A program made the translations under genes and the position numbers. Below, piece by piece: positions 2,433-37,801 of a stretch of 64,000 nucleotides of DNA. The notes below the pieces were generated by a model. It was given only the letters and a program-made list of their open reading frames with translations, was not told the DNA's origin and did no database searches. The DNA comes from Gemmatimonadales bacterium. GTDB lineage: Bacteria; Gemmatimonadota; Gemmatimonadetes; Gemmatimonadales; GWC2-71-9. Position 1 is the first letter of the stretch, and the number at the start of each line of letters is the position of its first letter. The stretch lies in assembly GCA_035279705.1 (NCBI GenBank), contig DATEHG010000011.1:248-64247 (forward strand), read 5' to 3'.

Positions 2433-4732
2433 GGTTCAACCGTGAGGCGGGCCCCGTCGGGCGGAGTGATGGGCTGGGGCAGAAGGCGGAGGTAGCCCGA
2501 GAATGCATCGAAGGTCGTCGTGCTCGACTGCTGGGCCGCCTCGGCTCCCGCCGGCAGAGTCAGCGTGCCGAGCAGTGCAGAGCTCAAGGCGATCGAGTAG
2601 CTGGCGTCGCGCGAGATCTTCTTGCCCGCGGGCAGCAGGGCGCTGCGGATCCGGTTGCCCGCCGGGCGATTCGGATCGTAGCGAACGGTCAGGCCGGAAA
2701 TCGCGGCGGATGGTGCGGCGCCGGCGACGAGCTGTTCGAGCACCGCCATGACCCCGCTGCCCTTGAGGGTGACCCGCTGCAGCTGTGACCGGTCTGGCCA
2801 CGAGGAGTTCAGGACTCCAGCAGTGATGGTGCCGGCGGCAAAGTCGCTGGTCAGCTCAGTGGTGGCCACGAAGCCGAAGTCCGCTCTGAGGGCGGTGCGA
2901 TAGGCATCCGCCACCAGCGCGCCCAGCGGCCCGCCGGCGGCGCCGCGGGTGAGCGGCAGCGCAAGACTCGCCACCGGGCGGTTGGCGGCCGAGTCGGCCC
3001 GGAGCGCGGCCTGGCGGAGCGAGTCACTGCGGATCTTGCGCGGATCGGGGCCGAACAGGGGCGTGGGATTGGGAGCGGCCCGGGCCGCGACCAGCGGCGC
3101 TCCCGCCTTCACATAGAGCGCCCGTGCCTGCGAGGCCTGTGCCTCCGGCTCGATGTGCCAGTGCGAGGTCCCGAAATCCTCGGGGCGGAGCATCTTGCGC
3201 GAGTGGAGATCGTCCATCAGCAGGTCGACGATGCGCTCGCCCTGGTCGTAGATCACCGGCGCATTCCGCAGCATGTCGTAGCCACCAACCCCGGCGATCC
3301 GCGCACTGGCGACGGCAAAGGTCAGTGTGTCCCAGGCGACGACGGCGCGGCCCCGCACCTTGACCCCGCGAATGCGACTGCCGGCCGGCTTGCTCAGATC
3401 GATGACGTAGTCGGCGCCGCCGATGACGTCATAGGACGAGCCCGGCAGGAAGAGATTGGTCGCCACCCTTCCGGTGGAATCCACATAGAAGTGGCGGGCG
3501 GAGCGCTCCAGGTAGGCCAGGAACTGGGCACCGGTCATTTGGACGGCCCGCAGCGTGTAGTCCTGGGGATAGAGAGCCAGCACCTGCCGGCGGGAAACTT
3601 CTCCCAGGTCCAGGCCGGCCCTGGTGTCGAACACCGTGATCGCGGCGACATCGGCTCCGGCCCGGCGCCTCATCAGATCGGTCATCCACTGGGTGAGTGG
3701 CGTGTCCTCGACCCTCGCGGAGGTGGCCCGCATCGAGGCCGAGAGGGTCCCCAGGATTTCATCGGTCCATCCCTGTACCACACGGTGCAGCTCCCGGAAT
3801 CGCCGCTGGAACGTGGCCGGCACGGAGAAGGCCTCGAGCGGCACACTTTCTCCGCGCACCCGAACCAGCGACCACCCCGATTCCCGGCGCACCATGTCGA
3901 CGTGGACGACCGCCAGCCGCTCCGCATCACGGCCGGCCTGCACGAAGTGGACACCATTGATGACCGTGTCGGTAATCGTGCGGCCGGTGTGCCCCAGGAT
4001 GACCAGGTCGGGCCGGATCTTTCCCGTTGCCAGGATACCGGCGCCGTTCTCGCCGCCGATGCCCGTGGTGTCGTAGGTCGACGGCTCGTCGAGCCCGGCG
4101 TGAGCCAGGACGACCACCAGATCGCCGTCGCGCCGCATTTCCGGCAGCACCGGCGTGATGGCGTCGGCAAAACGGGTGAGGCGGAGCCGCCCCTGCAGCT
4201 GCTCGCGATTCCACAGGCCGGCTCCCGGCGTCGTCAGCCCCGCCACCGCGATCCGGACCTCCTGGCGCTTGAGAACCAGATAGGAGCGGAAGGCCAGGGT
4301 ATCCTCCTTGCCCACCACGCGAAGGTTGGCGCTGACCATCGGGAAACGGGCGTCGGAGATCCGCCGGTTGAGCGTGGCGACACCCTGATCGAAGTCGTGC
4401 TCGCCCAGGGTCGCGACGTCGTACTGCAGCGTATTCATGGCGTCGACCACCGGGCTCGACTGCGGTGGCGCCACGTAGGTGTAGTAGGAGCCGAACGGAG
4501 TGCCGGTGATCGCATCGCCGGCGTCGAGCAGGATGACGCGGCCGGAGTAGGTATTACGGAGGAAGTCGAGCTCGGCGGCGGCCCGGGCGAGCCCGCCTTG
4601 GCCTGGCGCGTCCCGGAGGTAGTCCCACTCCGTGACCTGGCCCCGGACGTCGGTCGTGGCCACCAGCACCAGATGCACCGTGTCGGCCGGGCCCTGCGCC
4701 AGACCCGCGGCGACCAGCAATGGCATCAGCAT
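2429..4732 (-). CDS. Secreted bifunctional metallophosphatase/5'-nucleotidase (UshA-like) with extra C-terminal region
   Basis: 767 aa. N-terminal signal-like MLMPLLVAAGLAQG; calcineurin-like motifs (LVATTDVRG, LLDAGDAITGT, LGEHDFD, GHTG); a 5'-nucleotidase C-terminal-like middle part. Confidence 0.8.
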   Translation of the reverse strand: MLMPLLVAAGLAQGPADTVHLVLVATTDVRGQVTEWDYLRDAPGQGGLARAAAELDFLRNTYSGRVILLDAGDAITGTPFGSYYTYVAPPQSSPVVDAMNTLQYDVATLGEHDFDQGVATLNRRISDARFPMVSANLRVVGKEDTLAFRSYLVLKRQEVRIAVAGLTTPGAGLWNREQLQGRLRLTRFADAITPVLPEMRRDGDLVVVLAHAGLDEPSTYDTTGIGGENGAGILATGKIRPDLVILGHTGRTITDTVINGVHFVQAGRDAERLAVVHVDMVRRESGWSLVRVRGESVPLEAFSVPATFQRRFRELHRVVQGWTDEILGTLSASMRATSARVEDTPLTQWMTDLMRRRAGADVAAITVFDTRAGLDLGEVSRRQVLALYPQDYTLRAVQMTGAQFLAYLERSARHFYVDSTGRVATNLFLPGSSYDVIGGADYVIDLSKPAGSRIRGVKVRGRAVVAWDTLTFAVASARIAGVGGYDMLRNAPVIYDQGERIVDLLMDDLHSRKMLRPEDFGTSHWHIEPEAQASQARALYVKAGAPLVAARAAPNPTPLFGPDPRKIRSDSLRQAALRADSAANRPVASLALPLTRGAAGGPLGALVADAYRTALRADFGFVATTELTSDFAAGTITAGVLNSSWPDRSQLQRVTLKGSGVMAVLEQLVAGAAPSAAISGLTVRYDPNRPAGNRIRSALLPAGKKISRDASYSIALSSALLGTLTLPAGAEAAQQSSTTTFDAFSGYLRLLPQPITPPDGARLTVEP

Positions 4733-10222: not shown

Positions 10223-11203
10223 ATGGAAGCCACCTCGACCACCGCCTCCCCGGCCGCCCCCGGCATCGCGATCCGGGACCGGGCGCCCGTCGGCGACTGG
10301 ATCTTCCGGATCGCCCTGACCGCCGCGGCCCTGGTGATCCCGGTGCTGCTGGTGTTCCTGGGCCTCGAGCTCCATGACGGCGCGAGGCTGGCCATGCACA
10401 AGTTCGGGTTCGAATTCCTGACCCGGAGCATCTGGGACCCGGTGGCCGAGGATTTCGGCGCCCTGCCGCTCATCTTCGGCACCCTGCTGTCGTCGGCCAT
10501 CGCCCTGCTGATCGCAGTGCCGCTGTCACTCGGCGTGGCCATCTTCCTCACTGAATTCTGCCCCAAGGCGCTGCGCCAGCCGGTCGCGTTCATGGTGGAG
10601 CTGCTGGCCGCGATCCCGAGCGTGGTGTACGGCCTCTGGGGCATTTTCGTGCTGATGCCCATCCTGCGGAAACTGGTCTTCCCCCTGCTCCGGGATGTGC
10701 TGGGCTTCCTTCCCCTGTTCAAGGGGCCGATCTACGGCCCGTCGATGCTGGCGGCCAGCATCATCCTCTCGATCATGGTGATGCCGTACATCATGGCCGT
10801 TTCCCGGGAAGTCCTGCTGGCCGTTCCCGGCAGTCAGCGTGAGGCCGCACTGGCCTTGGGCGCCACGCGGTGGGAGGCGGTGCGGACCGCGGTCCTGCCC
10901 TACGCCCGCACCGGGATCCTCGGCGCCATCGTGCTCGGTCTCGGCCGGGCGCTCGGCGAGACGATGGCGGTCACGATGCTGATCGGCAACCGCCACGAAC
11001 TGGCGGCCTCGCTCTTTGCTCCGGGGTACACGATGGCGGCGGCAATCGCCAATGAATTCTCCGAGGCCGCCACCGACATGCACTTCTCGGCACTGGCCTA
11101 CGTGGCCCTGGTGCTCTTCCTCATGACCTTGCTGGTCAACGCGGCAGCGCGCCTGATGATCTGGCGGGTCTCCCGGTCCGGCTCCGCTGGAGGACGCCAT
11201 TGA
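10223..11203 (+). CDS. pstC: Phosphate ABC transporter permease
   Basis: 326-aa multi-TM protein with the EAA-type loop ([15 protein letters not shown]). Context supports the call. Confidence 0.9.
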   Translation: MEATSTTASPAAPGIAIRDRAPVGDWIFRIALTAAALVIPVLLVFLGLELHDGARLAMHKFGFEFLTRSIWDPVAEDFGALPLIFGTLLSSAIALLIAVPLSLGVAIFLTEFCPKALRQPVAFMVELLAAIPSVVYGLWGIFVLMPILRKLVFPLLRDVLGFLPLFKGPIYGPSMLAASIILSIMVMPYIMAVSREVLLAVPGSQREAALALGATRWEAVRTAVLPYARTGILGAIVLGLGRALGETMAVTMLIGNRHELAASLFAPGYTMAAAIANEFSEAATDMHFSALAYVALVLFLMTLLVNAAARLMIWRVSRSGSAGGRH

Positions 11204-30889: not shown

Positions 30890-31488
30890 GCCGGCACCTC
30901 CCCGCCCTGCCGGTCGAATTCGTCGGCAGTTTTCCCGATCCCCGCCACCCGCTGGATCCTCCGCTCCCCGAAATCGCCTTTCTCGGACGCTCCAACGTCG
31001 GCAAATCGAGTCTGCTCAACGCCGTGTCCGGCCGTCCCGGGCTCGCCCGCGTCAGCCGCACCCCGGGCCGCACCTCGGCGATGAACGTGTTCCGGTACCC
31101 CACCTTCTACCTCGTGGATCTTCCGGGATACGGCTACGCGCGAGCCAGTCATGAGGCGCGAAGTGGCTACGCGAAGCTCATCAACGATTATCTCGTCGAG
31201 CGCTCCAGGCTCCATGCCGTGGTCTGGCTGCTGGATATCCGCCATGGCCCCTCGGCCGAGGACCTGGAGCAGCGTGAGCTGCTGGCCGAGCGAGGAGTTC
31301 CGGTGCTCGTGGCGCTGACCAAGGCGGACAAACTGACTCGGCGGGAACAGATCAGGCAGGCCGCGGGCATGGCGGTGGCGCTGGACCTTCCGGAAGAGCA
31401 ATTTCATCTCACCAGCAGTTCCCGTGGCACCGGCATCGCGGACCTGGGTGACAGCATCCTTGCCGTACTCGCGGAGACCGCCCCATGA
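30886..31488 (+). CDS. engB: Ribosome biogenesis GTP-binding protein YsxC/EngB
   Basis: GTG at 30886 overlaps the clpX stop (GTGA). G1 [13 protein letters not shown]3 DLPGYGY, G4 TKADK. Confidence 0.85.
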
Positions 31489-32138
31489 GCTTTCGCCGCT
31501 GGACCGCAGGCCCCCTCCTGGCCGCCCTGCTGCCGCTCTGCGCCTGCGCGGCCAGGGCTCAGACGCCGGTCGACACCACGGGACTCCTCCCCGCCGGCTA
31601 CGGCACCCTGAGCATCGACGACATTACGGTGCTGCTCAGTACGGATGTACTCGACATCCGCTTCGTGCCGCTGGACGAGCGCGTGCTCCGGCTGGCCAAG
31701 CCGTCGGTGGACAGCTCGATGGACCAGCTGATCCAGCAGTACCGAGCCCAGATCCAGGAGGCCAGCACCCGGAACGGCATCAGCGCGCCGGGCCTGGCGC
31801 TGATCACCTTCTACTCACGGCAGACCGGCACCCGCTTCGAGCCGCAGGACTACTCGGTGCTGGCCCCGGGCCGGGAATACCGGCCGGTGGCGGTGATCCC
31901 GTACACCAGCAATTTCAACAACGGCCAGCTCGACCTGCGCCAGCGCGCATCGGCGATCTACGTGTTCGAGGAGCCGCTGCCGGTGGAAACCAATTTCGGC
32001 GTGCGGTACGGCAGCACGACGTCCACCGATGCGTGGAGCGGAATCCGGGTCAAACTGGACCGGGAAAAGACCCGGGTCATTTCGCGGTCCGGACAGCAGG
32101 CCACCCGCAACCTTCCCGATTCGGTGCCGCAGCACTAG
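31485..32138 (+). CDS. Hypothetical secreted/lipoprotein-like protein coupled to engB
   Basis: 217 aa. ATGA overlap with engB. Signal [26 protein letters not shown]. No family recognised. Confidence 0.5.
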   Translation: MSFRRWTAGPLLAALLPLCACAARAQTPVDTTGLLPAGYGTLSIDDITVLLSTDVLDIRFVPLDERVLRLAKPSVDSSMDQLIQQYRAQIQEASTRNGISAPGLALITFYSRQTGTRFEPQDYSVLAPGREYRPVAVIPYTSNFNNGQLDLRQRASAIYVFEEPLPVETNFGVRYGSTTSTDAWSGIRVKLDREKTRVISRSGQQATRNLPDSVPQH

Positions 32139-33089
32139 TCAGACGAAAATGGCCCGCTCCACTCCCGGGGCGGGCTTTCCCATCACGAGCATCGCGGTTG
32201 AACGGCTGTCCGCCAGGAGGCCGCTCCGCGCCACGGCGGTGGCCTGCACCTTCCGGTCGGCGGGATAGCCGCTGGCCGGATCCATCACGTGCCCCCGGAC
32301 TTCCCTGCCGTACCGGACCACGCTCACCGTGTTGGCACTCGTCGCAAGGGCGCGATCACGGAGGCGCACCATTCCCCTGGTCCCGTCGGGCACGAGCGGG
32401 TCAGCGATGGCGACGTCCCAGCCGGCCTTGCCGGGCGGCGACCCGAGCCCGAGGCAGTCACCGCTGATGTCGATGAAGGCGGAGGTCACGCCCTGCTGCC
32501 GCAGTACCGCGGCCATCCGGTCGAGCCCATAGCCGACTCCGACACCGCCGAGATCCAGCTGGGTATGCCTGGCGGGCAGCGCCACGCGATCGCCATCGAG
32601 AACGACCACCGCTGCCTCGACGGCCTCCCTCGCCTCCGCGATCTCCGCGGGTGCGGGCGCAGTCGCGCGCGGCCGATGGAAACCCCAGGTCCGCATCAGA
32701 GGGTCCACCGCGACGTTGAAGGCGCCGGCGGTGGCGAATCGCGCCTCTGCCGAGGCGGCCAGCACCGCCGCGAGATCGGTGTCCACCCGCATGGCGCGCC
32801 CGCCGGCGTGGCGGTTGAGCTCAACCAGGTCGCTCGCGGACTCGAACAGCGTGAGCCGCGATTCCACCCGGCGCAACTCGGCCAGCGCACCGGCCGCCGC
32901 TTCGTAACCCCGGTCATCGGAATCGGCATACAGCACGAGGTGAACCGGCTGCCCCATCGCCCAGGACCAGCGCTCGACGAGGCGCGCCGACGCGCGAGCG
33001 CGCCGGTGCGCGGGGGGGCCGGGGGGTGGGGGGGCAGCAAAGGCCATCACGCCTAGTCCTGCTGCGCCGAGGAACTCTCGCCGCTTCAC
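32139..33089 (-). CDS. apbE: FAD:protein FMN transferase (ApbE/Ftp) with Tat-type signal
   Basis: GTG at 33089 overlaps the upstream stop (GTGA) and gives VKRREFLGAAGLGVMAFAA. ApbE-like body (...FNVAVDPLMRTWGF..., ...DLGGVGVGYGLD..., ...ALATSANT...). Confidence 0.8.
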   Translation of the reverse strand: MKRREFLGAAGLGVMAFAAPPPPGPPAHRRARASARLVERWSWAMGQPVHLVLYADSDDRGYEAAAGALAELRRVESRLTLFESASDLVELNRHAGGRAMRVDTDLAAVLAASAEARFATAGAFNVAVDPLMRTWGFHRPRATAPAPAEIAEAREAVEAAVVVLDGDRVALPARHTQLDLGGVGVGYGLDRMAAVLRQQGVTSAFIDISGDCLGLGSPPGKAGWDVAIADPLVPDGTRGMVRLRDRALATSANTVSVVRYGREVRGHVMDPASGYPADRKVQATAVARSGLLADSRSTAMLVMGKPAPGVERAIFV

Positions 33090-33592
33090 GGACTGCCCCG
33101 TTCCCGCCAGCCGAGTTCGCGCAGGATCCACCAGGCCTGCACATAGAACACCACCGCCAGCGAGCCGCTCGAAAGGGCCAGGAGCCAGCTGAACCGGGGA
33201 TCCACGTATCGCATCAACCACATGGCCGTGAACGAGGTGAGCAGAGCCACGAACGGTTCCACGATCAGCCCGCCTCGCCAGCGTTCCGACGGCCGCTGAC
33301 AGAGCGCCAGGATCGCGCCGCTCAGCGCGAAGATGGCGGCCATCGACAACAGGTGGGTATGGGTAATCGTCAGCATCTCGGCGAAGCTCTTGGGAAAGGT
33401 CATCGCCGCGTCGGACGCGGACGGATCGGCGCCGCGATACCGCTCGGCAATGCCGCGCGGGACCATGTGCGTGGTGTACCAGACGAAGAGCAGCGAGGTG
33501 GTGTAGCCCACCAGCTGCACGATGGTCAGCCAGCGGGCCAGGGCGCGGAGGGGCCTGGGCAGCCCCGACCAGGTGAGCGGTTCGGCGTTCAC
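33086..33592 (-). CDS. Hypothetical four-helix membrane protein with intramembrane histidines
   Basis: 168 aa with four hydrophobic segments and the His-containing motifs VWYTTHM and LTITHTHLLSMA. 4-bp overlaps with both neighbouring genes. Confidence 0.55.
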   Translation of the reverse strand: MNAEPLTWSGLPRPLRALARWLTIVQLVGYTTSLLFVWYTTHMVPRGIAERYRGADPSASDAAMTFPKSFAEMLTITHTHLLSMAAIFALSGAILALCQRPSERWRGGLIVEPFVALLTSFTAMWLMRYVDPRFSWLLALSSGSLAVVFYVQAWWILRELGWRERGSP

Positions 33593-34149
33593 TTGAGCTT
33601 CCCCTCCGATTTCCAGCGGGCCAGGTCGGCCAGCGCGGTGCGGACGCCGAGTGTCACCGAGTTGGAGCTGATGGTGGCTCCGGAAATGGCGCGGATGTCC
33701 TTCCCGATGAGCAGCGGATCTGCGGCGGTCTTGCCCCGGAACTGCTTTCGCCAGGCGTCGTAAGCCACCTCACCGCCGTAGGGCTCGCGGTACACCAGGA
33801 TGTCCACATCGCGAAGCGTACCCGCCGTGTCGGTGGCCACCAGGAAGGTGATGGGCTGGTCCTTGCCAAGGACATTGCGCACGACGGCAAAGCCGGCCAC
33901 GCCCGCGGCGTCGTGAATCCGGAATACCGGGGACCCGTCGGTCTGGATCGTGTCCGTGGTCGCGGCCTTGCCGAAGAGGCGCGAAATCGAAGCGGCCACC
34001 TTGCCGGGCGGCGCCGACTGCGCGGGCGCGGGCAGCGCCGCCGATGCCGTCAGTACCAGAGCGACCACCGTGGTACTCAACCACGGTCGCGCGGCCGAGC
34101 AATTCATGGCACTGCACCCCGCGCCTGTCATGCCAGCGGATCGCTTCAT
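33589..34149 (-). CDS. Secreted FMN_bind-domain protein (ApbE substrate-type)
   Basis: C-terminal ...YREPYGGEVAYDAWRKQFRGK...IRAISGATISSNSVTLGV carries the (S/T)GA(T/S) flavinylation motif. The real start may be the ATG at 34107 (MNCSAARPWLSTTVVALVLTASAALPAPAQS). Confidence 0.7.
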   Translation of the reverse strand: MKRSAGMTGAGCSAMNCSAARPWLSTTVVALVLTASAALPAPAQSAPPGKVAASISRLFGKAATTDTIQTDGSPVFRIHDAAGVAGFAVVRNVLGKDQPITFLVATDTAGTLRDVDILVYREPYGGEVAYDAWRKQFRGKTAADPLLIGKDIRAISGATISSNSVTLGVRTALADLARWKSEGKLK

Positions 34150-34237
34150 TCAGGTTTCGCGCCAGGCCATCGTGCAGGAAGTTCGTGTGGCCGTTGACCG
34201 GCACCGTGAGGCCGATTCCCGAGAGAGGACGGGTGCG
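34130..34237 (-). pseudogene. 36-codon remnant of the C-terminus of a DUF1111/di-haem peroxidase-like gene
   Basis: Own translation, opening right after an in-frame TGA: RTRPLSGIGLTVPVNGHTNFLHDGLARNLNEAIRWH. As I recall it, the family C-terminal block is RTPPLWG(I/L)GL...GH..FLHDGRAR.LEEAI.WHGGEA. Downstream the frame becomes Arg/Gly-rich with no recognisable motif. Confidence 0.35.
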
Positions 34238-34259
34238 TCACTCGCTGCCGCTCGCCGCA

Positions 34260-35411
34260 TCAGAACTGCCATCCCAGACCGAGGTTCATCGTCTCGTCCT
34301 CGAGGAAGTGGGCGGCGTTCCGGCGAAGCTGATAGTCGCCCTTGAAGGCGAGACCGGAGATCGGCTTCCAGGTGATTCCCAGCGTCGTGGTATTGCGGTT
34401 GTAGGCGCCGTTGCGCGGCGTGCCATCGGGAACCGAGGCGTGGGTGTCCGCCTGGTCGTAGCGGGCGAAGAGAGCCAGGCGCTGCGTTGAGGAGGGGGCC
34501 AGGGCCGAGAGCGCATTCCAGGCGCCTTCGAGGTACCAGCCGGCGATACGATCGCCCACCGAGTTGTTGAAGAAGGCGTTGATCGCGGCGGCATCGCGGA
34601 TCGTCATGTTGCCCGCTTCGCCACGGAATGCGAACGCACCGACGTCGTAGCGCGCGTCGGCCGCGATCAGAAACACCGGGGCCGCGAAGAGACCCGTGCC
34701 GAGTCCGGGGGTGTTGGCCGCACTGCCGCCGTAATACGCCGAGGTGCCGATCTTGAGACCGGAGTGGGCCCATTCGAGGCGGCCGGTGAGCGCGGCGTTG
34801 GCAAAGTTGGCGTCCTGCCCCTCGCCGCTGCCTTCGCGGGTCCCCTCGGCGCCGGTGAAGCCCTCGGCGCGGAGTCCGTTGACGAAGTAGGCCCGATAGG
34901 CGAGGCCCTCAACCGGCGGAATCCGGCCGGCCAGGCCGACACCGATCTCGCGCCAGGTGGTGGGAATGACCAGCTGGTCATAGAGTGGGCGCTCGACACC
35001 GTTGAACGTGGGTGGTTCGTGCAATTCGTTGATGATGCCGGCGGGAATGAGCACCAGGCCTGCCCGGAGGGTAAACGGATCCGAAAGGCGGTAGTCGATG
35101 TAGGCCTGCTCGATCTCGAGTTCCCCCTTGCTGCCGCCCCCTTCGACCCGCGCATCCTCGACCTCCACCTCGGAGCGAAAGGTGATTCGCTCGTTGAAGC
35201 TGTGGCCGAGATAGAGCACGAACCTGGCGAGATTCACATGGCCCGTGCTGTCCGGCAGGCTGGAGTTCTGATACTGGATCTCACCGTATCCGCCGACGAC
35301 GGTGCGGGGCTGGTCGCTGTCCTGCGCCGCGAGGAAGCGCGGCGAGAGGGTGAGGAAGGCGATGGCGAGGAGCGAGGTGCAGCGGAGGAGGGCGGCCTTA
35401 TAAAGTCGCAT
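34260..35411 (-). CDS. Putative outer-membrane beta-barrel (porin-like) protein
   Basis: The ATG at 35411 gives MRLYKAALLRCTSLLAIAFLTLSPRFLAAQ. Alternating aromatic/Gly strand pattern and terminal ...NLGLGWQF. Confidence 0.6.
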   Translation of the reverse strand: MRLYKAALLRCTSLLAIAFLTLSPRFLAAQDSDQPRTVVGGYGEIQYQNSSLPDSTGHVNLARFVLYLGHSFNERITFRSEVEVEDARVEGGGSKGELEIEQAYIDYRLSDPFTLRAGLVLIPAGIINELHEPPTFNGVERPLYDQLVIPTTWREIGVGLAGRIPPVEGLAYRAYFVNGLRAEGFTGAEGTREGSGEGQDANFANAALTGRLEWAHSGLKIGTSAYYGGSAANTPGLGTGLFAAPVFLIAADARYDVGAFAFRGEAGNMTIRDAAAINAFFNNSVGDRIAGWYLEGAWNALSALAPSSTQRLALFARYDQADTHASVPDGTPRNGAYNRNTTTLGITWKPISGLAFKGDYQLRRNAAHFLEDETMNLGLGWQF

Positions 35412-35427
35412 AATGATAGTCAATATC
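35409..35427. promoter_or_regulatory. Fur-box-like operator CATAATGATAGTCAATATC
   Basis: 16/19 identities to the classical Fur consensus GATAATGATAATCATTATC, with the 9-1-9 dyad kept. Lies in the only strongly AT-rich island of the window and abuts the porin-like gene start. Confidence 0.55.
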
Positions 35428-35611
35428 AAGTGAGAATTAAACTCAGGCGAATGGCAACTAGATTACTCCCATTTAATCCCGCGGTCAACTCCCGCTGCCC
35501 TGCCCCTTTGCGCCCGACTCGACGACTCCACTAGACTCCCCCAACGACGCGAACTCTCCTTCCCGGCCCCACTCCCACGCCCCTCGAGGAGTCTCGGCGC
35601 TGACCACACCG

Positions 35612-37801
35612 TTGAACCCCCGCCCCTTCATCCGTGGCCTGGCCACTCACCTCCGCCTGGTGCTCGGCGGCGGTGCGATCGCGCTCTCCCTTCTCGCCGC
35701 GATCCAGCGGTGGCCACTCTGGCTCAGTGTCGTCCTGGGCGCGGCGGGAGTCGGGCTCCTCGTTCTCGCCAATCTGCGCCAGCGCCGCCTCATGCTGCGC
35801 CTGGAGCACGAGCGGACGACCCTGTCGCTGCAGCTCGAGCGCCGGATAAACGAGCTGTTTTCCCTCCAGGAGCTGAGTTACGTCCTCGCGGAGTCGCTGC
35901 AGCTGGAACGCATCGTGAGCCAGGTGGCGCGCTACGCTCTCCGGTTTCTGCAGGCGGAGGGATCGGCGCTGGTGCTGGTGGACGAGGAGAACCAGGGCCT
36001 CACGGTGGCCGCGGCGGAGGGTTCGCTGCGGCAACTGGCGGGGACGCGGGTCAGGGAAGAGGAAGAGACGCTACTGCTGCATGCGATCCGTCACGAGCGG
36101 ATCGAAGTGGGACACGAGCACCAGGGCACCAGGGTAAAGCTGCTCGGCGAGGCAACCGGCGCGTCCGGCGCCGCCGCGCCGCTCCGGGCCCATGGCCTCA
36201 CGATGGGGGCGCTGCTGGTGTCCGATCACCGCAGCGGGCCGTTCTCGACCGAGGATCTCTGGCTGCTCTCCACCATGACCACGCAGGTGGCCGTGGTGCT
36301 GGCCAACAGCCGCCTGTTCGAGCTCATCCGGGTCACGAAGGAAGAGTGGGAAACGGCATTCAACGCGCTGGCGGAAGGCATCGCGGTGGTGGATGGCCGG
36401 GGGCGTGTTCGCCGGGCCAACCACGCGCTGGCCCGCATCGTCGACATCCCGATTCCGGCGCTCATCGGTCAACGGTTCTGGGGCCTCGTGGTGGGCGAAC
36501 AGGAAATCCCCGCCCCGTCGGCCGAAGCGATGCGGCGCGGCAAACGCCACTCTGGAGCGATCGTCCAGAGCCCCACCCTTCATCGGACGCTGCGGCTGGC
36601 GGTCGCCCCGCTCACGGAGGCGGGCCCTGACCAGGAGGTCGTGGTGCTGGTGCAGGACGTGACCGAACAGCAGGCCTTCGAGCGGCAACTGATCCAGAGC
36701 GAAAAGCTCGCGGCGGTCGGCCAGCTGGTGTCGGGGGTGGCCCACGAGCTCAACAACCCGCTCACCTCGATCGCCGGCCTGTCGGAGCTGCTGCTCGAGC
36801 GGGCCCCCGCGGGAGATCCCGATCGCGAACACCTGCGGGTGGTGCACGAGCAGGCCACCCGGGCCGGCCGGATCGTGCAGAACCTGCTCACCTTCGCGCG
36901 CAAGGAACCGCTGGAAGCGGCGCCCTGCGACCTGGCCGATGTGGTGACCAGCACGGTGATGCTGATGAGCCACGAGCTCAAGCTGCGGGGCGCCGCGCTG
37001 CAGCAGGATCTCCCCTCCACTCCCGTGCGGGTCCTGGGCGACCGCTACGGCCTGCAGCAGGTGCTGCTCAACCTGCTCACCAACGCCAGCCAGGCCGTCG
37101 GCTCGCTGCCGGAGGGCAGGGCGCGGCAGATCACCATCCAGGTGGCGGAGGAGAACGAGAGCGCCGTGCTGCGGGTGCAGGATTCAGGCGCGGGAGTACC
37201 CGCCGAGCTGGTGCCGCAGCTCTTCACCCCGTTTTTCACCACCAAGGAACCGGGCCAGGGCACGGGCCTCGGACTCTCGATCAGCTACGGCATCGTCGAG
37301 TCCCATGGCGGTCGGCTGGCCTACGCCGTGCTGCCAGGCGGAGGATCGGAGTTCAGCGTCACGCTGCCGCTCGCCCAGGTGGCCGAGCGGCTCCCGGGCG
37401 TGCGGTTGTCCGGGGCCGCCGCGGCCATCCGGCGGAAGATCCTGGTGGTCGATGAGGACGCGGCCGTACAGCGCGCCGTCTCCGCCTTGTTCGTGAACGA
37501 GGGCCATGAGGTCGAAGGCGTGCGCGGCGGGGAGCTGGGACTCGCGGCGGCACGAAGTGGCTACTGGGACCTGGTGCTGGCCGATCCGCGTGCCCCGGGC
37601 CTGGGCGGCTCCGGGTTCGTCGACCTCCTCCTGGCGGACGGTGCCGGGTGGAAGGAACGGCTCATCGCGGTGCCGGATCGGAGCGACCGGCCGGCCGTGG
37701 AGCGACTGAAGTCCCGCGGGGTGGCGGTGGTGGAGAAGCCGTTCAAGTTGCGGGAACTCAAGGAAATGGTGGGACGCCTGCTGATTTCACAGGACGCCTG
37801 A
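35612..37801 (+). CDS. Hybrid sensor histidine kinase (TM-GAF-PAS-HisKA-HATPase-REC)
   Basis: 729 aa. H-box VSGVAHELNNPLTSI; N/G boxes LLNLLTNASQA, DSGAGVP, GTGLGLSISYGIV; C-terminal receiver KILVVDED...DLVLADP...EKPF. The TTG start is uncertain. Confidence 0.85.
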   Translation: MNPRPFIRGLATHLRLVLGGGAIALSLLAAIQRWPLWLSVVLGAAGVGLLVLANLRQRRLMLRLEHERTTLSLQLERRINELFSLQELSYVLAESLQLERIVSQVARYALRFLQAEGSALVLVDEENQGLTVAAAEGSLRQLAGTRVREEEETLLLHAIRHERIEVGHEHQGTRVKLLGEATGASGAAAPLRAHGLTMGALLVSDHRSGPFSTEDLWLLSTMTTQVAVVLANSRLFELIRVTKEEWETAFNALAEGIAVVDGRGRVRRANHALARIVDIPIPALIGQRFWGLVVGEQEIPAPSAEAMRRGKRHSGAIVQSPTLHRTLRLAVAPLTEAGPDQEVVVLVQDVTEQQAFERQLIQSEKLAAVGQLVSGVAHELNNPLTSIAGLSELLLERAPAGDPDREHLRVVHEQATRAGRIVQNLLTFARKEPLEAAPCDLADVVTSTVMLMSHELKLRGAALQQDLPSTPVRVLGDRYGLQQVLLNLLTNASQAVGSLPEGRARQITIQVAEENESAVLRVQDSGAGVPAELVPQLFTPFFTTKEPGQGTGLGLSISYGIVESHGGRLAYAVLPGGGSEFSVTLPLAQVAERLPGVRLSGAAAAIRRKILVVDEDAAVQRAVSALFVNEGHEVEGVRGGELGLAAARSGYWDLVLADPRAPGLGGSGFVDLLLADGAGWKERLIAVPDRSDRPAVERLKSRGVAVVEKPFKLRELKEMVGRLLISQDA

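Follow-up and report, generated by a model that had tools for sequence, protein, structure and literature searches.

ApbE-flavinylated periplasmic proteins with small membrane partners have been proposed to act as assimilatory iron reductases (PMC8238504). Clusters encoding PepSY-like, DUF2271, and ApbE proteins are Fur-repressed in Shewanella and Caulobacter (Meheust et al. 2021, PMC8238504) and often include an outer-membrane importer (PMC8238504); a FoxB structure is cited in PMC11334425. DUF4405/MsrQ-like proteins, small His-bearing membrane proteins encoded with apbE, have been proposed as electron feeders of flavinylated proteins (Huang et al. 2024, PMC11334425), and in P. aeruginosa and V. 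cholerae, Peptidase_M75 and DHOR genes are paired in clusters for iron uptake under Fur control (PMC3143127). The operon described here is most likely a hitherto undescribed form of flavin-based iron reduction and uptake in the periplasm.

Within the window, the entire 64-kb stretch of DNA analysed, the minus strand from 35488 to 32139 carries, after a promoter-like site, a tandem pair of 7-1-7 palindromes and then four genes encoding, 5' to 3', a predicted 16-strand porin, an FMN_bind protein, a four-helix membrane (4-TM) protein, and a Tat-signal ApbE (Table 1). This four-gene content, proposed in the initial annotation, is borne out by reading frames and Pfam/NCBIfam matches. Both 4-bp overlaps that it described are GTGA, one shared by the FMN_bind stop and the 4-TM start, the other by the 4-TM stop and the ApbE start. 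The operon is a conserved unit. The analysis directly supports its gene content, its motifs and folds, its synteny, the conservation of the operator, and the presence of iron-related genes beside it.

Table 1. Features of the operon and its upstream region, in window coordinates.
Feature	Position	Strand	Particulars
-35-like hexamer TTGACC	35483..35488	-	read from sequence; conserved in orthologous loci
-10-like hexamer TAATCT	35460..35465	-	17 nt past the -35; ortholog conservation
Box A, 7-1-7 palindrome TGAGTTTAATTCTCA	35431..35445	-	aligns with the operator conserved across Gemmatimonadales
Box B, TGATATTGACTATCA (35428-35414)	35409..35428	-	core of the 19-mer Fur-box match; reaches the ATG at 35411-35409
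Porin (barrel) gene	34260..35411	-	383 aa; C-terminal GLGWQF
DHOR (PF06537) gene remnant	34127..34279	-	~52 codons of the C-terminal region
FMN_bind gene	33589..34149	-	PF04205, 3e-10; ISGATISS
4-TM gene	33086..33592	-	PF27139 (Aq_1264_TM); 168 aa; GTG start
ApbE gene	32139..33089	-	PF02424, 8e-57, 193 bits; 316 aa; GTG start

The first gene product had been taken for a β-barrel, and the AlphaFold2 model (pLDDT 74) accordingly predicts 16 strands in an OmpF/OmpU/OmpT-type fold, with Foldseek matches to OmpT/U/F/C at E about 1e-13. Its match to Pfam Porin_O_P is weak (21.8 bits, 72 of 370 profile positions), as are those of the Ignavibacteria homologs. The signal peptide ends AAQ. A conserved loop motif, NE-x-HEPPTFNGV-x-RP...IPTTWRE, marks the protein; in the form NE-x-HEPP...RP...IPTTW it is specific to this module's barrels across phyla, and porin homologs adjoin FMN_bind and 4-TM genes in distant clades.

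The FMN_bind protein is secreted and measures 186 aa counted from the first ATG, with an alternative start at 34131, where the L092 ortholog begins. Among solved structures RnfG is its closest relative (E 0.0017), with a score of 30 bits on the NCBIfam rnfG model, whose family cut-off is 102 bits. Orthologs carry the flavinylation motif [IV][SA]GA[TS][IL]S; a scripted scan for [ST]G[AS][TS] gave a match in 81 of 87 loci, and of the other six, two that were read directly have [VI]AGATISS. The motif suggests that the protein is flavinylated. The enzyme for this step would be the encoded ApbE, an FAD:protein FMN transferase that solved FMN transferases match at E 4e-24 and whose N-terminus, GTG-KRREFL, reads as a twin-arginine signal.

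The Pfam family of the 4-TM protein has no function on record, and published accounts of membrane partners for flavinylated proteins do not include it. Neither a structural nor a profile relative was found, and the protein matches no DUF4405-, PepSY-, or cytochrome-b-like profile, in keeping with the initial annotation, which had not recognised it as a characterised family. Its description there as His-rich was overstated, as it holds three His of which H42 is not conserved; H78 and H80 (THTH) are invariant. The family-wide net charge, +2.1 at the N-terminus, -2.8 in loop 1, +1.9 in loop 2, and +1.1 at the C-terminus, assigns the HxH, like the rest of the conserved residues, to the periplasmic side. 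This face would comprise an acidic loop averaging 6 Asp/Glu, the invariant HxH, and a W-L-x-R-Y motif. A Glu in TM3 (EPF) is often conserved in the family and absent in several clades. The protein has two adjacent His, compared with four spaced ones in known transmembrane electron carriers, and lacks both a conserved Cys and any domain for binding NAD or flavin. We infer that it may be the membrane partner carrying electrons to the flavoprotein. Two 4-TM-ApbE fusions are present in the database, P0218 (531 aa) and P0260; P0218, known from one sequence on a 2.7-kb contig, may be a frameshift artefact of overlapping genes.

Orthologous loci share TTGAC[AC], a 17-nt spacing, and a TAnnnT hexamer, with the -10 variants TAGTCT, TAAAGT, or TAAATT at equal spacing. 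The promoter assignment is putative, since its basis is this conservation and a generic sigma-70 scan gave no call at the operon's upstream site. In the window, as in L001 and L002, the right half of box A, ATTCTCA, keeps a fixed distance of 22-23 nt to the -10. A Fur box had been reported at 35409-35427 (+), where CATAATGATAGTCAATATC is indeed identical to the classical GATAATGATAATCATTATC at 16 of 19 positions. This is the sole match with at most three mismatches in 64 kb, and 0 of 100 whole-window shuffles yielded one. The AT-rich island noted earlier is equally real: 35399-35473 is the lowest-GC 75 nt of the window (34.7% GC; next lowest, 48%). AT-richness cannot account for the match, because shuffling of the AT-rich 75-92 nt alone gave a probability of 5e-5 to 8e-5 for three or fewer mismatches.

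Between promoter and start codon, a Gemmatimonadales site TTGA[AT]AA[TC]NATTCTCAACTAG is found at 56 of 62 non-redundant loci, counted at a threshold of at least 20 bits on the operator matrix, and these 56 sites lie downstream of the conserved TTGAC[AC]-17-TAnnnT; the box is absent from the other 6 Gemmatimonadales loci. Across 1.2 Mb scanned, the sole other strong operator site is a duplicated promoter relic in L025. Conservation before orthologous operons, as envisaged in the initial annotation, thus holds for the operator and not for the copy singled out there, which is lineage-specific: a second box at the box B position occurs in the closest relatives (L002, L007, and L093) and is degenerate in L094. 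The window's two boxes score 15.7 and 19.1 bits, against 30-41 bits for ortholog sites on the same matrix. The conserved consensus is TTGAGAAT-N-ATTCTCAA-like, unlike the classical E. coli box, and the operator is positioned downstream of the -10 without overlapping it. We consider the operator putatively Fur-type, presumably bound by a Fur-family regulator in response to iron. The window contains no Fur-family gene, and at no Gemmatimonadales locus does one occur less than 8 kb from the module.

The trio of porin, FMN_bind, and 4-TM genes is kept in Gemmatimonadales, Kapaibacteria/Chlorobiota, Ignavibacteria, and a very divergent low-GC clade, usually adjoined by the ApbE gene. All four genes are present in every genome locus analysed that is long enough to show them (Gemmatimonadales, Kapaibacterium, Chlorobiota, and Bacteroidetes MAGs), and Ignavibacteria loci carry the trio without an adjacent ApbE. 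Even the most divergent 4-TM clade holds a barrel homolog (hhalign E 4e-51), FMN_bind, and 4-TM together. In nearly all loci the FMN_bind coding region adjoins or overlaps that of the 4-TM protein, and the 4-TM/ApbE GTGA overlap recurs in most; the tighter, universal coupling of the 4-TM gene is with FMN_bind, not with ApbE.

Gene neighbourhoods in other lineages independently support the link to iron that had been drawn from the Fur box. Genes of six kinds beside the module are suggestive of iron: a Fur-family gene, FTR1, ferritin-like genes, FeoB with DtxR/FeoA, and imelysin with di-haem peroxidase. In Kapaibacteria, a Fur-family gene (PF01475 at 1e-30), preceded by a related palindrome, leads the same co-directional string. 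Its product scores 85-94 bits on the NCBIfam Fur model, 68 on PerR, and 45 on Zur, shows by BLAST about equal similarity to B. subtilis PerR and E. coli Fur, and contains HHDH and Fur-type Glu residues. Glu where PerR has Asp, together with HHDH, presumably marks it as Fur rather than PerR. FTR1 lies in the same gene string as the module in L081, ferritin-like genes occur in L069 and L070, and FeoB and Fe_dep_repr_C/FeoA adjoin the module in L090. Gemmatimonadales loci encode no iron permease beside the module, and no electron donor is encoded near it. Because the operon stands next to iron genes in related genomes, flavin-based iron reduction and uptake is its most likely role.

In L092, L093, and L007, an imelysin (Peptidase_M75/EfeO-like) gene and a DHOR (di-haem oxidoreductase) gene are inserted inside the operon, where they separate the barrel gene from FMN_bind; of ~90 loci, only 3 have DHOR. 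The 110-nt gap at this point in the window is no plain spacer, as it is occupied by a di-haem peroxidase gene remnant with 75% identity to the L092 DHOR over 52 aa (tblastn, E 1e-14). L092 DNA is 91-93% identical to the window on both flanks and bears intact Peptidase_M75 and DHOR genes between them. The imelysin and DHOR pair was, by this comparison, deleted in the window lineage and the module retained.

On balance, and with somewhat better than even confidence, we favour an iron-responsive three-compartment module that would reduce iron in the periplasm by covalently bound flavin. Under iron sufficiency, a Fur-family repressor would occupy the two tandem palindromes and, since these lie between promoter and start codon, block transcription; under iron scarcity, the operon would be expressed. 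The specialised 16-strand porin, with its strictly conserved His/Glu constriction loop, would let iron species into the periplasm. Tat-exported ApbE would place FMN on the secreted FMN_bind protein, at the Thr of ISGAT, and this flavoprotein would dock on the periplasmic face of the Aq_1264_TM protein, receive electrons through it, most likely from membrane quinol, and convert Fe(III) or an Fe(III)-chelate to Fe(II). The substrate, like the origin and direction of the electron flow, is part of this proposal. Fe(II) would then enter through permeases encoded elsewhere in the genome or, in other lineages, through the adjacent FTR1 or FeoB, with the imelysin and di-haem peroxidase pair as accessories in some lineages.

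The 4-TM protein could itself be an inner-membrane permease for Fe(II) or another metal, leaving the purpose of iron uptake unchanged and the flavoprotein fed by an unlinked donor. A membrane-embedded HxH, the often-conserved TM3 Glu, and the acidic loop are typical of metal pathways, and no other permease lies near the module in Gemmatimonadales loci. We nevertheless think this unlikely, as the Glu is missing from several clades, all family-wide conserved positions are periplasmic-side with none across the membrane, and the gene is retained even beside FTR1 or FeoB; the permease model also fails to account for the membrane electron-transfer partner that, in the scheme of PMC8238504, a flavinylated periplasmic protein needs. 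Less likely again is a module for peroxide or oxidative stress controlled by a PerR-type regulator, in which the flavoprotein would pass quinol electrons to the di-haem peroxidase or a repair enzyme. The rarity of DHOR and its loss from the window with the module kept speak against this, as do the higher Fur than PerR score and Fur-type residues of the linked regulator and the iron-specific FTR1, FeoB, and DtxR/FeoA neighbours, even though PerR belongs to the Fur family, BLAST places that regulator about equally close to both proteins, the peroxidase gene sits between barrel and FMN_bind in the closest relatives, and ferritin/Dps-like neighbours exist.

A role of the 4-TM protein outside the electron path, as a flavin/FAD exporter or membrane tether of ApbE, is improbable: the frequent GTGA overlap with ApbE and the fusions P0218 and P0260 suggest such an accessory, but one fusion may be artefactual, Ignavibacteria keep the trio without adjacent ApbE, and it is FMN_bind to which the 4-TM gene is universally coupled. 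The boxes of several orthologs read TGAAAATCATTTTCA or TGAAAATCATTCTCA, which we take to match the actinobacterial Zur consensus TGAAAATNATTTTCA exactly or to differ from it at one position, so that the operator could be part of another metal regulon, controlled by a Fur paralog of Zur or Mur type, with the module serving zinc or manganese homeostasis. That reading is very improbable, given that all metal-specific neighbours found are iron genes (FTR1, FeoB, FeoA/DtxR, ferritin-like, imelysin/DHOR), that the linked regulator scores far lower on Zur than on Fur, and that redox-inert zinc gives a redox flavoprotein no obvious role. The least probable reading, one we scarcely credit, is a respiratory outlet for dissimilatory electron transfer to external acceptors rather than assimilation; Listeria PplA/FmnB are among the closest mechanistic precedents (PMC8238504, PMC9973259) and the unit includes an outer-membrane channel, but it has just one FMN domain, its porin of 16 strands is too narrow to enclose a protein, its operator is of a metal-regulator type, and its neighbours are genes for iron storage and uptake.

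As a module for periplasmic iron reduction, the operon would resemble the PepSY-like/DUF2271/ApbE clusters in combining ApbE, a secreted flavinylated protein, and a small inner-membrane partner. The PepSY-like partner, however, is a di-haem cytochrome with four conserved His, whereas the partner here has four helices, an HxH, and no PepSY-model match; the flavinylated domain is DUF2271 there and FMN_bind here, and the outer-membrane part is a TonB-dependent receptor there and a 16-strand porin here. DUF4405/MsrQ-like proteins differ in having six helices, four central His, and two haems, compared with four helices and two adjacent His predicted near the periplasmic end of one helix. P19/FTR1 clusters (PMC8238504) likewise place an FMN_bind protein, of undefined redox role in assimilating iron, beside an iron permease, as in L081, but they are mostly Gram-positive, contain P19, and are described with neither Aq_1264_TM nor a porin; the window, unlike them, has neither FTR1 nor P19. 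RnfG and NqrC carry ApbE-dependent FMN on the Thr of SGAT and dock on membrane subunits, as is proposed for the FMN_bind protein here, yet they are parts of six-subunit pumps, while that protein is a secreted stand-alone unit without RnfA/D/E or NqrB/D/E genes. The imelysin/DUF1111 (DHOR) clusters and EfeUOB (Xu et al. 2011, PMC3143127) offer the exact pair found in the closest relatives and as a remnant in the window, although published imelysin/DHOR clusters hold no FMN_bind, ApbE, or Aq_1264_TM. The module's porin shares with OmpF/OmpC/OmpU/OmpT and OprP/OprO a predicted 16-strand barrel and a long internal loop after strand 5, at a sequence identity of 9-14%.

The module comprises four co-directional genes on the minus strand, encoding in order an outer-membrane barrel protein, a secreted FMN_bind protein, a four-transmembrane (4-TM) protein and ApbE. 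The genes and their coordinates agree with the initial annotation, including the barrel start at 35411 and the 4-bp overlaps at both junctions of the three downstream genes, each of which reads GTGA. Sampling a single genome per species gave 80 loci, about 68 of them from Gemmatimonadales; in tblastn with the window's four proteins as queries, each locus of sufficient length contains all four genes. In the Gemmatimonadales loci examined, the module lies between genes for trigger factor, ClpP, ClpX and EngB and, at its other end, a gene for a GAF-PAS histidine kinase; the remaining loci belong to metagenome-assembled genomes labelled Kapaibacterium, Chlorobiota or Bacteroidetes, plus one Alphaproteobacteria. 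The barrel gene is divergently oriented in a set of orthologous loci, L069-L075, and Ignavibacteria, including the cultured Rosettibacter firmus, keep the barrel, FMN_bind and 4-TM genes with no adjacent ApbE. In the most divergent 4-TM clade, drawn from metagenomes, the FMN_bind gene again stands before the 4-TM gene. In L090, the gene upstream of this pair encodes an unambiguous barrel homolog (hhalign probability 100%, E 4e-51); in L088, a different barrel-like protein (DUF6662) precedes the pair and ApbE follows it. In almost every locus, the FMN_bind reading frame either abuts that of the 4-TM protein or overlaps it. From this linkage across clades, the core is a trio of barrel, FMN_bind and 4-TM genes, to which ApbE is in most cases joined.

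Two further genes adjoin ApbE. In L069, L072 and L073, which belong to one clade, the gene immediately after it encodes a flavin-containing amine oxidase with a Tat signal (PF01593, about 1e-60), which may be an additional periplasmic oxidoreductase of the module or a neighbour with no connection to it. In the window, a gene for a 217-aa protein with a signal-peptide-like N-terminus converges on ApbE, the two stop codons abutting; Pfam and NCBIfam searches with this protein gave no match, and a similar unannotated gene holds the same position in L001, L025, L092 and L093.

The AlphaFold2 model of the 383-aa barrel protein contains 16 strands with a long loop after strand 5 (pLDDT 74). Foldseek matches it to OmpT, OmpU, OmpF and OmpC-type porins (E about 1e-13, TM-score 0.55-0.68), general porins being best, so that a product first described only as barrel-like is now a predicted 16-strand β-barrel. 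The Porin_O_P profile (PF07396) matches at 21.8 bits against a cut-off of 20.9, covering just profile positions 20-91 of 370, and its matches in homologs are graded 'weak' or 'faint'. A TonB-dependent receptor was rejected: Plug and TonB_dep_Rec gave no match, and the protein has 16 strands and 383 residues rather than a Plug and a 22-strand barrel. The motifs GYGE-x-HY, N-[EQ]-x-HEP...V-x-RP and IP[TS][TS]W are kept across clades whose barrels are 33-43% identical, the second lying within the long, low-confidence loop; their retention in such divergent barrels argues for a specialised channel, not a general porin.

The FMN_bind domain (PF04205) is matched at 3e-10 and 40.9 bits (cut-off 22) over profile positions 1-76 of 77, with RnfG as the nearest solved relative (E 0.0017). 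The predicted flavinylation motif ISGATISS is present as originally noted, and a scripted scan for [ST]G[AS][TS] found a match in 81 of 87 orthologous loci. Among the six without one, two from Kapaibacteria (L078 and L081) were inspected directly and have AGAT, which preserves the Thr. ApbE matches PF02424 essentially at full length (8e-57, 193 bits, profile positions 1-248 of 266), and solved FAD:protein FMN transferases match it at E 4e-24. From a GTG start the protein opens KRREFL, and its N-terminus, M/V-KRREFLGAAGLGVMAFAAPPPP, reads as a twin-arginine motif ahead of a hydrophobic segment, in keeping with the Tat signal first proposed.

At E up to 1e-3, a 90%-identity collection contains 1,192 relatives of the 168-aa 4-TM protein, and 264 clusters emerge from an exhaustive HMMER search over 50%-identity representatives, which makes this a genuine family of modest size. 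All 120 homologs listed, one of them 96% identical, carry a precomputed assignment to PF27139 (Aq_1264_TM), and membership of the window protein, read via these assignments and not from a direct model match, is near certain. AlphaFold2 predicts four long helices spanning residues 13-41, 70-96, 103-129 and 132-164 (pLDDT 83). Family-wide, the sole invariant residues are H78 and H80, two apart in one helix; G29 and G54 are nearly invariant, and K68, E72, E112-P-F, W125 and R128-Y are common, not universal. H42, one of the intramembrane His residues originally pointed out, is not conserved across the family. Family-wide net charges of +2.1 at the N-terminus, -2.8 in loop 1, +1.9 in loop 2 and +1.1 at the C-terminus indicate an N-in, C-in topology, which would place the acidic 33-residue loop 1, the HxH and the W-L-x-R-Y motif all on the periplasmic side, the HxH sitting a third of the way into TM2. 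On this model, the periplasmic face could be a docking place for the secreted flavoprotein.

A Foldseek search of the PDB with the 4-TM model returned nothing better than E 1.3, these hits being generic four-helix bundles. Searching PDB sequences with a profile of 60 diverse members gave no match up to E 10, and the same members showed no consistent family against Pfam, matches to MHYT (3/60) and DUF2871 (2/60) being treated as noise. A cytochrome-like reading (MsrQ, PepSY, DUF4405) was rejected, since only two adjacent His are conserved, whereas these cytochromes need four conserved, spaced His in the membrane core to form two bis-His haem sites. Profiles PF01794, PF03929/PF16357 and DUF4405 were scanned against the 60 members and gave one PepSY_TM_like_2 match at E 0.096 and no others; the DUF4405, cytochrome-b-like and PepSY-like affiliations raised at the outset thus find no family membership here. 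Fusions of Aq_1264_TM and ApbE domains exist in two database proteins, P0218 (531 aa) and P0260 (340 aa); P0218 is represented once only, on a contig of 2.7 kb, and may be a frameshift across overlapping genes. A third, P0254 (2169 aa), was discarded as a fusion because its match is spurious and of low complexity.

The barrel gene is preceded by the window's lowest-GC 75-nt stretch, with 34.7% GC against 48% for the runner-up, and the AT-rich island is thus as exceptional as initially described. The Fur-box-like 19-mer reported there, CATAATGATAGTCAATATC, is the sole site in the 64 kb searched with no more than three mismatches from the classical Fur box (16/19 match). Whole-window shuffles, a null that ignores local AT-richness, yielded zero matches as good; when the AT-rich 75-92 nt alone were shuffled 200,000 times, an equally good match arose in 5e-5 to 8e-5 of shuffles. 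Read on the minus strand, the leader contains promoter-like hexamers and two tandem palindromes, box A and box B, with a 7-1-7 dyad, box B matching the classical Fur consensus half-sites at 6/7 and box A at 5/7. No Shine-Dalgarno sequence precedes the barrel ATG on this strand. A generic promoter scan calls no promoter at TTGACC/TAATCT nor elsewhere in the scanned region, so the promoter assignment rests on conservation. The terminator scan found one terminator-like site only, inside the barrel gene, which is likely due to chance, and no Rfam family, riboswitches included, matches 31900-35800 at E up to 1. The boxes do not overlap the promoter hexamers: they lie 14 to 51 nt downstream of the putative -10 and reach the start codon, so repression would need a roadblock, or a block of initiation at an unrecognised promoter.

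Coordinates of leader elements, operator candidates and neighbouring features in the window and in orthologous loci
Feature	Locus	Position	Strand	Remark
Lowest-GC 75-nt stretch	window	35399-35473		
Fur-box-like 19-mer CATAATGATAGTCAATATC	window	35409-35427		
-35-like TTGACC	window	35488-35483	minus	read from sequence and conservation
Spacer between TTGACC and TAATCT	window		minus	17 nt
-10-like TAATCT	window	35465-35460	minus	inferred
Spacer, TAATCT to box A	window		minus	14 nt
Box A TGAGTTTAATTCTCA	window	35445-35431	minus	
CT dinucleotide	window		minus	between box A and box B
Box B TGATATTGACTATCA	window	35428-35414	minus	core of the 19-mer
TT, then barrel ATG (35411)	window		minus	directly after box B
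DHOR 3' remnant	window	34279-34127	minus	52 codons
217-aa protein gene	window	31485-32138	plus	
Palindrome TATTAAGACT-C-AGTCTTAATA	L078	about 4290-4315		candidate operator
Palindrome TATTAAGACT-C-AGTCTTAATA	L080	4079-4102		candidate operator
Palindrome TATTAAGACT-C-AGTCTTAATA	L081	about 3335-3358		candidate operator
Palindrome TATTAAGACT-C-AGTCTTAATA	L082	4249-4272		candidate operator
PD40 propeller protein gene	L078	4993-6201		
PD40 propeller protein gene	L081	4850-6109		
Second promoter-plus-box region	L025	10730-11010		promoter-plus-box 10730-10811
Second promoter-plus-box region	L054	10763-10933		
TATTTATATTTAGTCTAAATAA	L083	6340-6365		
TATTTATATTTAGTCTAAATAA	L085	6322-6345		
Amine oxidase gene	L069	9548-10924		
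Amine oxidase gene	L072	9780-11132		
Amine oxidase gene	L073	9886-11406		

Comparison of Gemmatimonadales upstream regions revealed that TTGAC[AC]-17-TAnnnT precedes the barrel gene in both promoter types, and that a conserved operator, TTGA[AT]AA[TC]NATTCTCAACTAG, lies some 10-25 nt beyond the -10. On a matrix built from these sites, 56 of 62 non-redundant Gemmatimonadales loci have a site of at least 20 bits. Some sites are extended to CTAGTTGAGAAT-N-ATTCTCAACTAG; the operator of L041 is an almost perfect 25-bp palindrome, and that of L059 reads TGATAATCATTATCA, the classical Fur core. The expectation that the box be conserved before orthologous operons is therefore borne out, but the conserved element is a Fur-family-type 7-1-7 or 8-1-8 palindrome that departs from the E. 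coli consensus. In the window's subclade (L002, L007, L093, L094), two boxes lie in tandem and extend as far as the ATG; the copy first reported, box B, is the second of these and specific to the lineage. The window boxes score 15.7 and 19.1 bits on the operator matrix, against 30-41 for most orthologs, and box B is, judged by its sequence, drifted from the conserved operator. A matrix scan of 1.2 Mb, which says little about the regulon as nearly all of it is flanks of this operon, found no further regulated genes and a sole further strong site, in L025.

Other candidate elements were observed beside these. L025 and L054 carry, between engB and clpX, a second TTGAC-17-TAnnnT promoter with a 28.9-bit box, oriented toward the clpX 3' end, with a 45-60-codon C-terminal fragment of a di-haem oxidoreductase (DHOR, PF06537) behind it; this copy is probably a rearrangement relic, and may alternatively mark a Fur-controlled small transcript. 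In L069, L070 and L072-L075, a conserved inverted repeat, TATTTGGAC-AAA-GTTCAAATA, lies between the divergent barrel and FMN_bind genes, where it overlaps a promoter pattern of Bacteroidetes type, TTTG...TAnnTTTG; this repeat is a possible operator for the L069-L075 clade. The Ignavibacteria loci L083 and L085 have TATTTATATTTAGTCTAAATAA in common, some 50 nt ahead of the barrel start; it contains the inner palindrome TTTAG-T-CTAAA and could be an operator or promoter element.

A Fur-family gene is absent from the window and from the 8 kb around the module in Gemmatimonadales loci. Such a gene (PF01475, about 1e-30) leads a co-directional string in four Kapaibacteria loci, the only clade in which this linkage is seen, the order being fur, a PD40 propeller protein, barrel, FMN_bind, 4-TM and ApbE, with an FTR1 permease gene after fur in L081. 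The regulator scores 85-94 bits with NCBIfam Fur models, 68 with PerR and 45 with Zur, every score lying below the curated cut-off. In an alignment with E. coli Fur and B. subtilis PerR, it retains H33, the HHDH motif and two CxxC pairs, and has Glu at both positions where PerR has Asp, positions that separate Fur from PerR. Directly before each Kapaibacteria fur gene lies a perfect or near-perfect palindrome, TATTAAGACT-C-AGTCTTAATA, each half-site of which agrees with the Gemmatimonadales half-site TTGAGAAT at 6/8 positions; it is a candidate autoregulatory operator. The Gemmatimonadales operator is itself a candidate Fur-family-type palindrome and a putative iron-responsive site. The product encoded between fur and barrel in L078 and L081 is a secreted protein of ~400 aa with PD40 (TolB-like) propeller repeats.

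Iron-related genes adjoin the module in several lineages. In addition to the FTR1 gene of L081, ferritin-like genes adjoin the divergent barrel in L069 and L070, and FeoB with a DtxR-type repressor carrying a FeoA domain lies immediately upstream of the barrel in L090. Genes for Peptidase_M75 (imelysin, EfeO-like) and DHOR are inserted between barrel and FMN_bind in the nearest relatives of the window, L092, L093 and L007. The intact pair in L092 spans about 2.5 kb within DNA that is 91-93% identical to the window on both sides, and the supposed barrel/FMN_bind spacer of the window holds a 52-codon remnant of the DHOR 3' end (75% identity, E 1e-14), indicating that the window lineage deleted the pair recently. 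In P. aeruginosa and V. cholerae, operons of imelysin and di-haem peroxidase are under Fur control and have been linked to iron uptake (PMC3143127).

The best-supported reading, which we hold with moderate confidence, is an iron-responsive periplasmic flavin reductase module. The porin would admit iron species into the periplasm, and ApbE would load FMN onto the secreted FMN_bind protein. The flavoprotein would dock at the periplasmic face of the 4-TM protein, take electrons there, most likely from quinol, and reduce Fe(III); Fe(II) would be taken up via permeases encoded elsewhere, FTR1 or FeoB being adjacent in some lineages. The scheme follows the logic already described for other flavinylated systems (PMC8238504). 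The interpretation originally put forward, a candidate iron-starvation flavin redox and uptake module, is supported within the reach of sequence analysis.

Competing readings concern the signal sensed and the role of the 4-TM protein. Several Gemmatimonadales boxes are one base off the actinobacterial Zur consensus, so the box alone does not fix the metal; membership in a Zur or Mur regulon nevertheless appears very unlikely, and a PerR-type peroxide system feeding the di-haem peroxidase rather improbable, because the iron-gene neighbours, seen in independent lineages, speak against both zinc and peroxide and make an iron role much more likely than either. The 4-TM protein might instead be a metal permease, which we regard as unlikely, or serve flavin export or as an accessory of ApbE, a role at which the P0218 and P0260 fusions faintly hint and to which we assign little probability. 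That the module is a respiratory electron outlet is the alternative to which we give the least credence.

Returning to the flavin reductase reading, we tentatively propose, as possible though short of probable, that Aq_1264_TM represents a further, previously unrecognised membrane-partner class for ApbE-flavinylated proteins. It would lack a di-haem core, relying for example on a quinol site that faces the periplasm or on one metal or haem centre at the invariant HxH, and would be joined with an NE-x-HEPP-loop porin and a stand-alone RnfG-like flavoprotein in TonB- and siderophore-independent reductive iron uptake across both membranes, widespread in Gemmatimonadota and in Bacteroidota/Ignavibacteria relatives. 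Flavinylation surveys left about 2,600 genomes with ApbE machinery and no assigned electron-transfer system (6,230 minus 3,635; PMC8238504), and the module may be one of these missing systems. It also offers a testable role for an uncharacterised Pfam family of about 264 clusters at 50% identity and >1,000 at 90%. Gemmatimonadales are abundant soil bacteria for which the literature searched holds no described iron regulon, and the module provides a first candidate iron-responsive operator and iron-acquisition route for them. It is unusual for a redox system to be paired with a dedicated porin carrying an invariant His/Glu loop, and this porin could show how iron species pass the outer membrane independently of TonB; the cultured trio carrier, Rosettibacter firmus, makes direct testing possible.

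The flavinylation literature searched mentions neither Aq_1264_TM, nor a porin partner, nor Gemmatimonadota; searches for 'Aq_1264' or 'PF27139' returned no papers, and no paper in the literature searched links the arrangement of FMN_bind, porin and Fur box. Flavinylation-linked iron-assimilation systems are a known class, and the module shares their logic; new here are an undescribed candidate membrane-partner family and a dedicated outer-membrane channel. Published partners of flavinylated proteins are NapH-like, MsrQ-like, PepSY-like, DsbD, Nqr/Rnf-like and DUF4405, whereas that of the module would be Aq_1264_TM; cytochromes of the MsrQ, PepSY and DUF4405 types carry four spaced His, whereas Aq_1264_TM has the invariant HxH alone.
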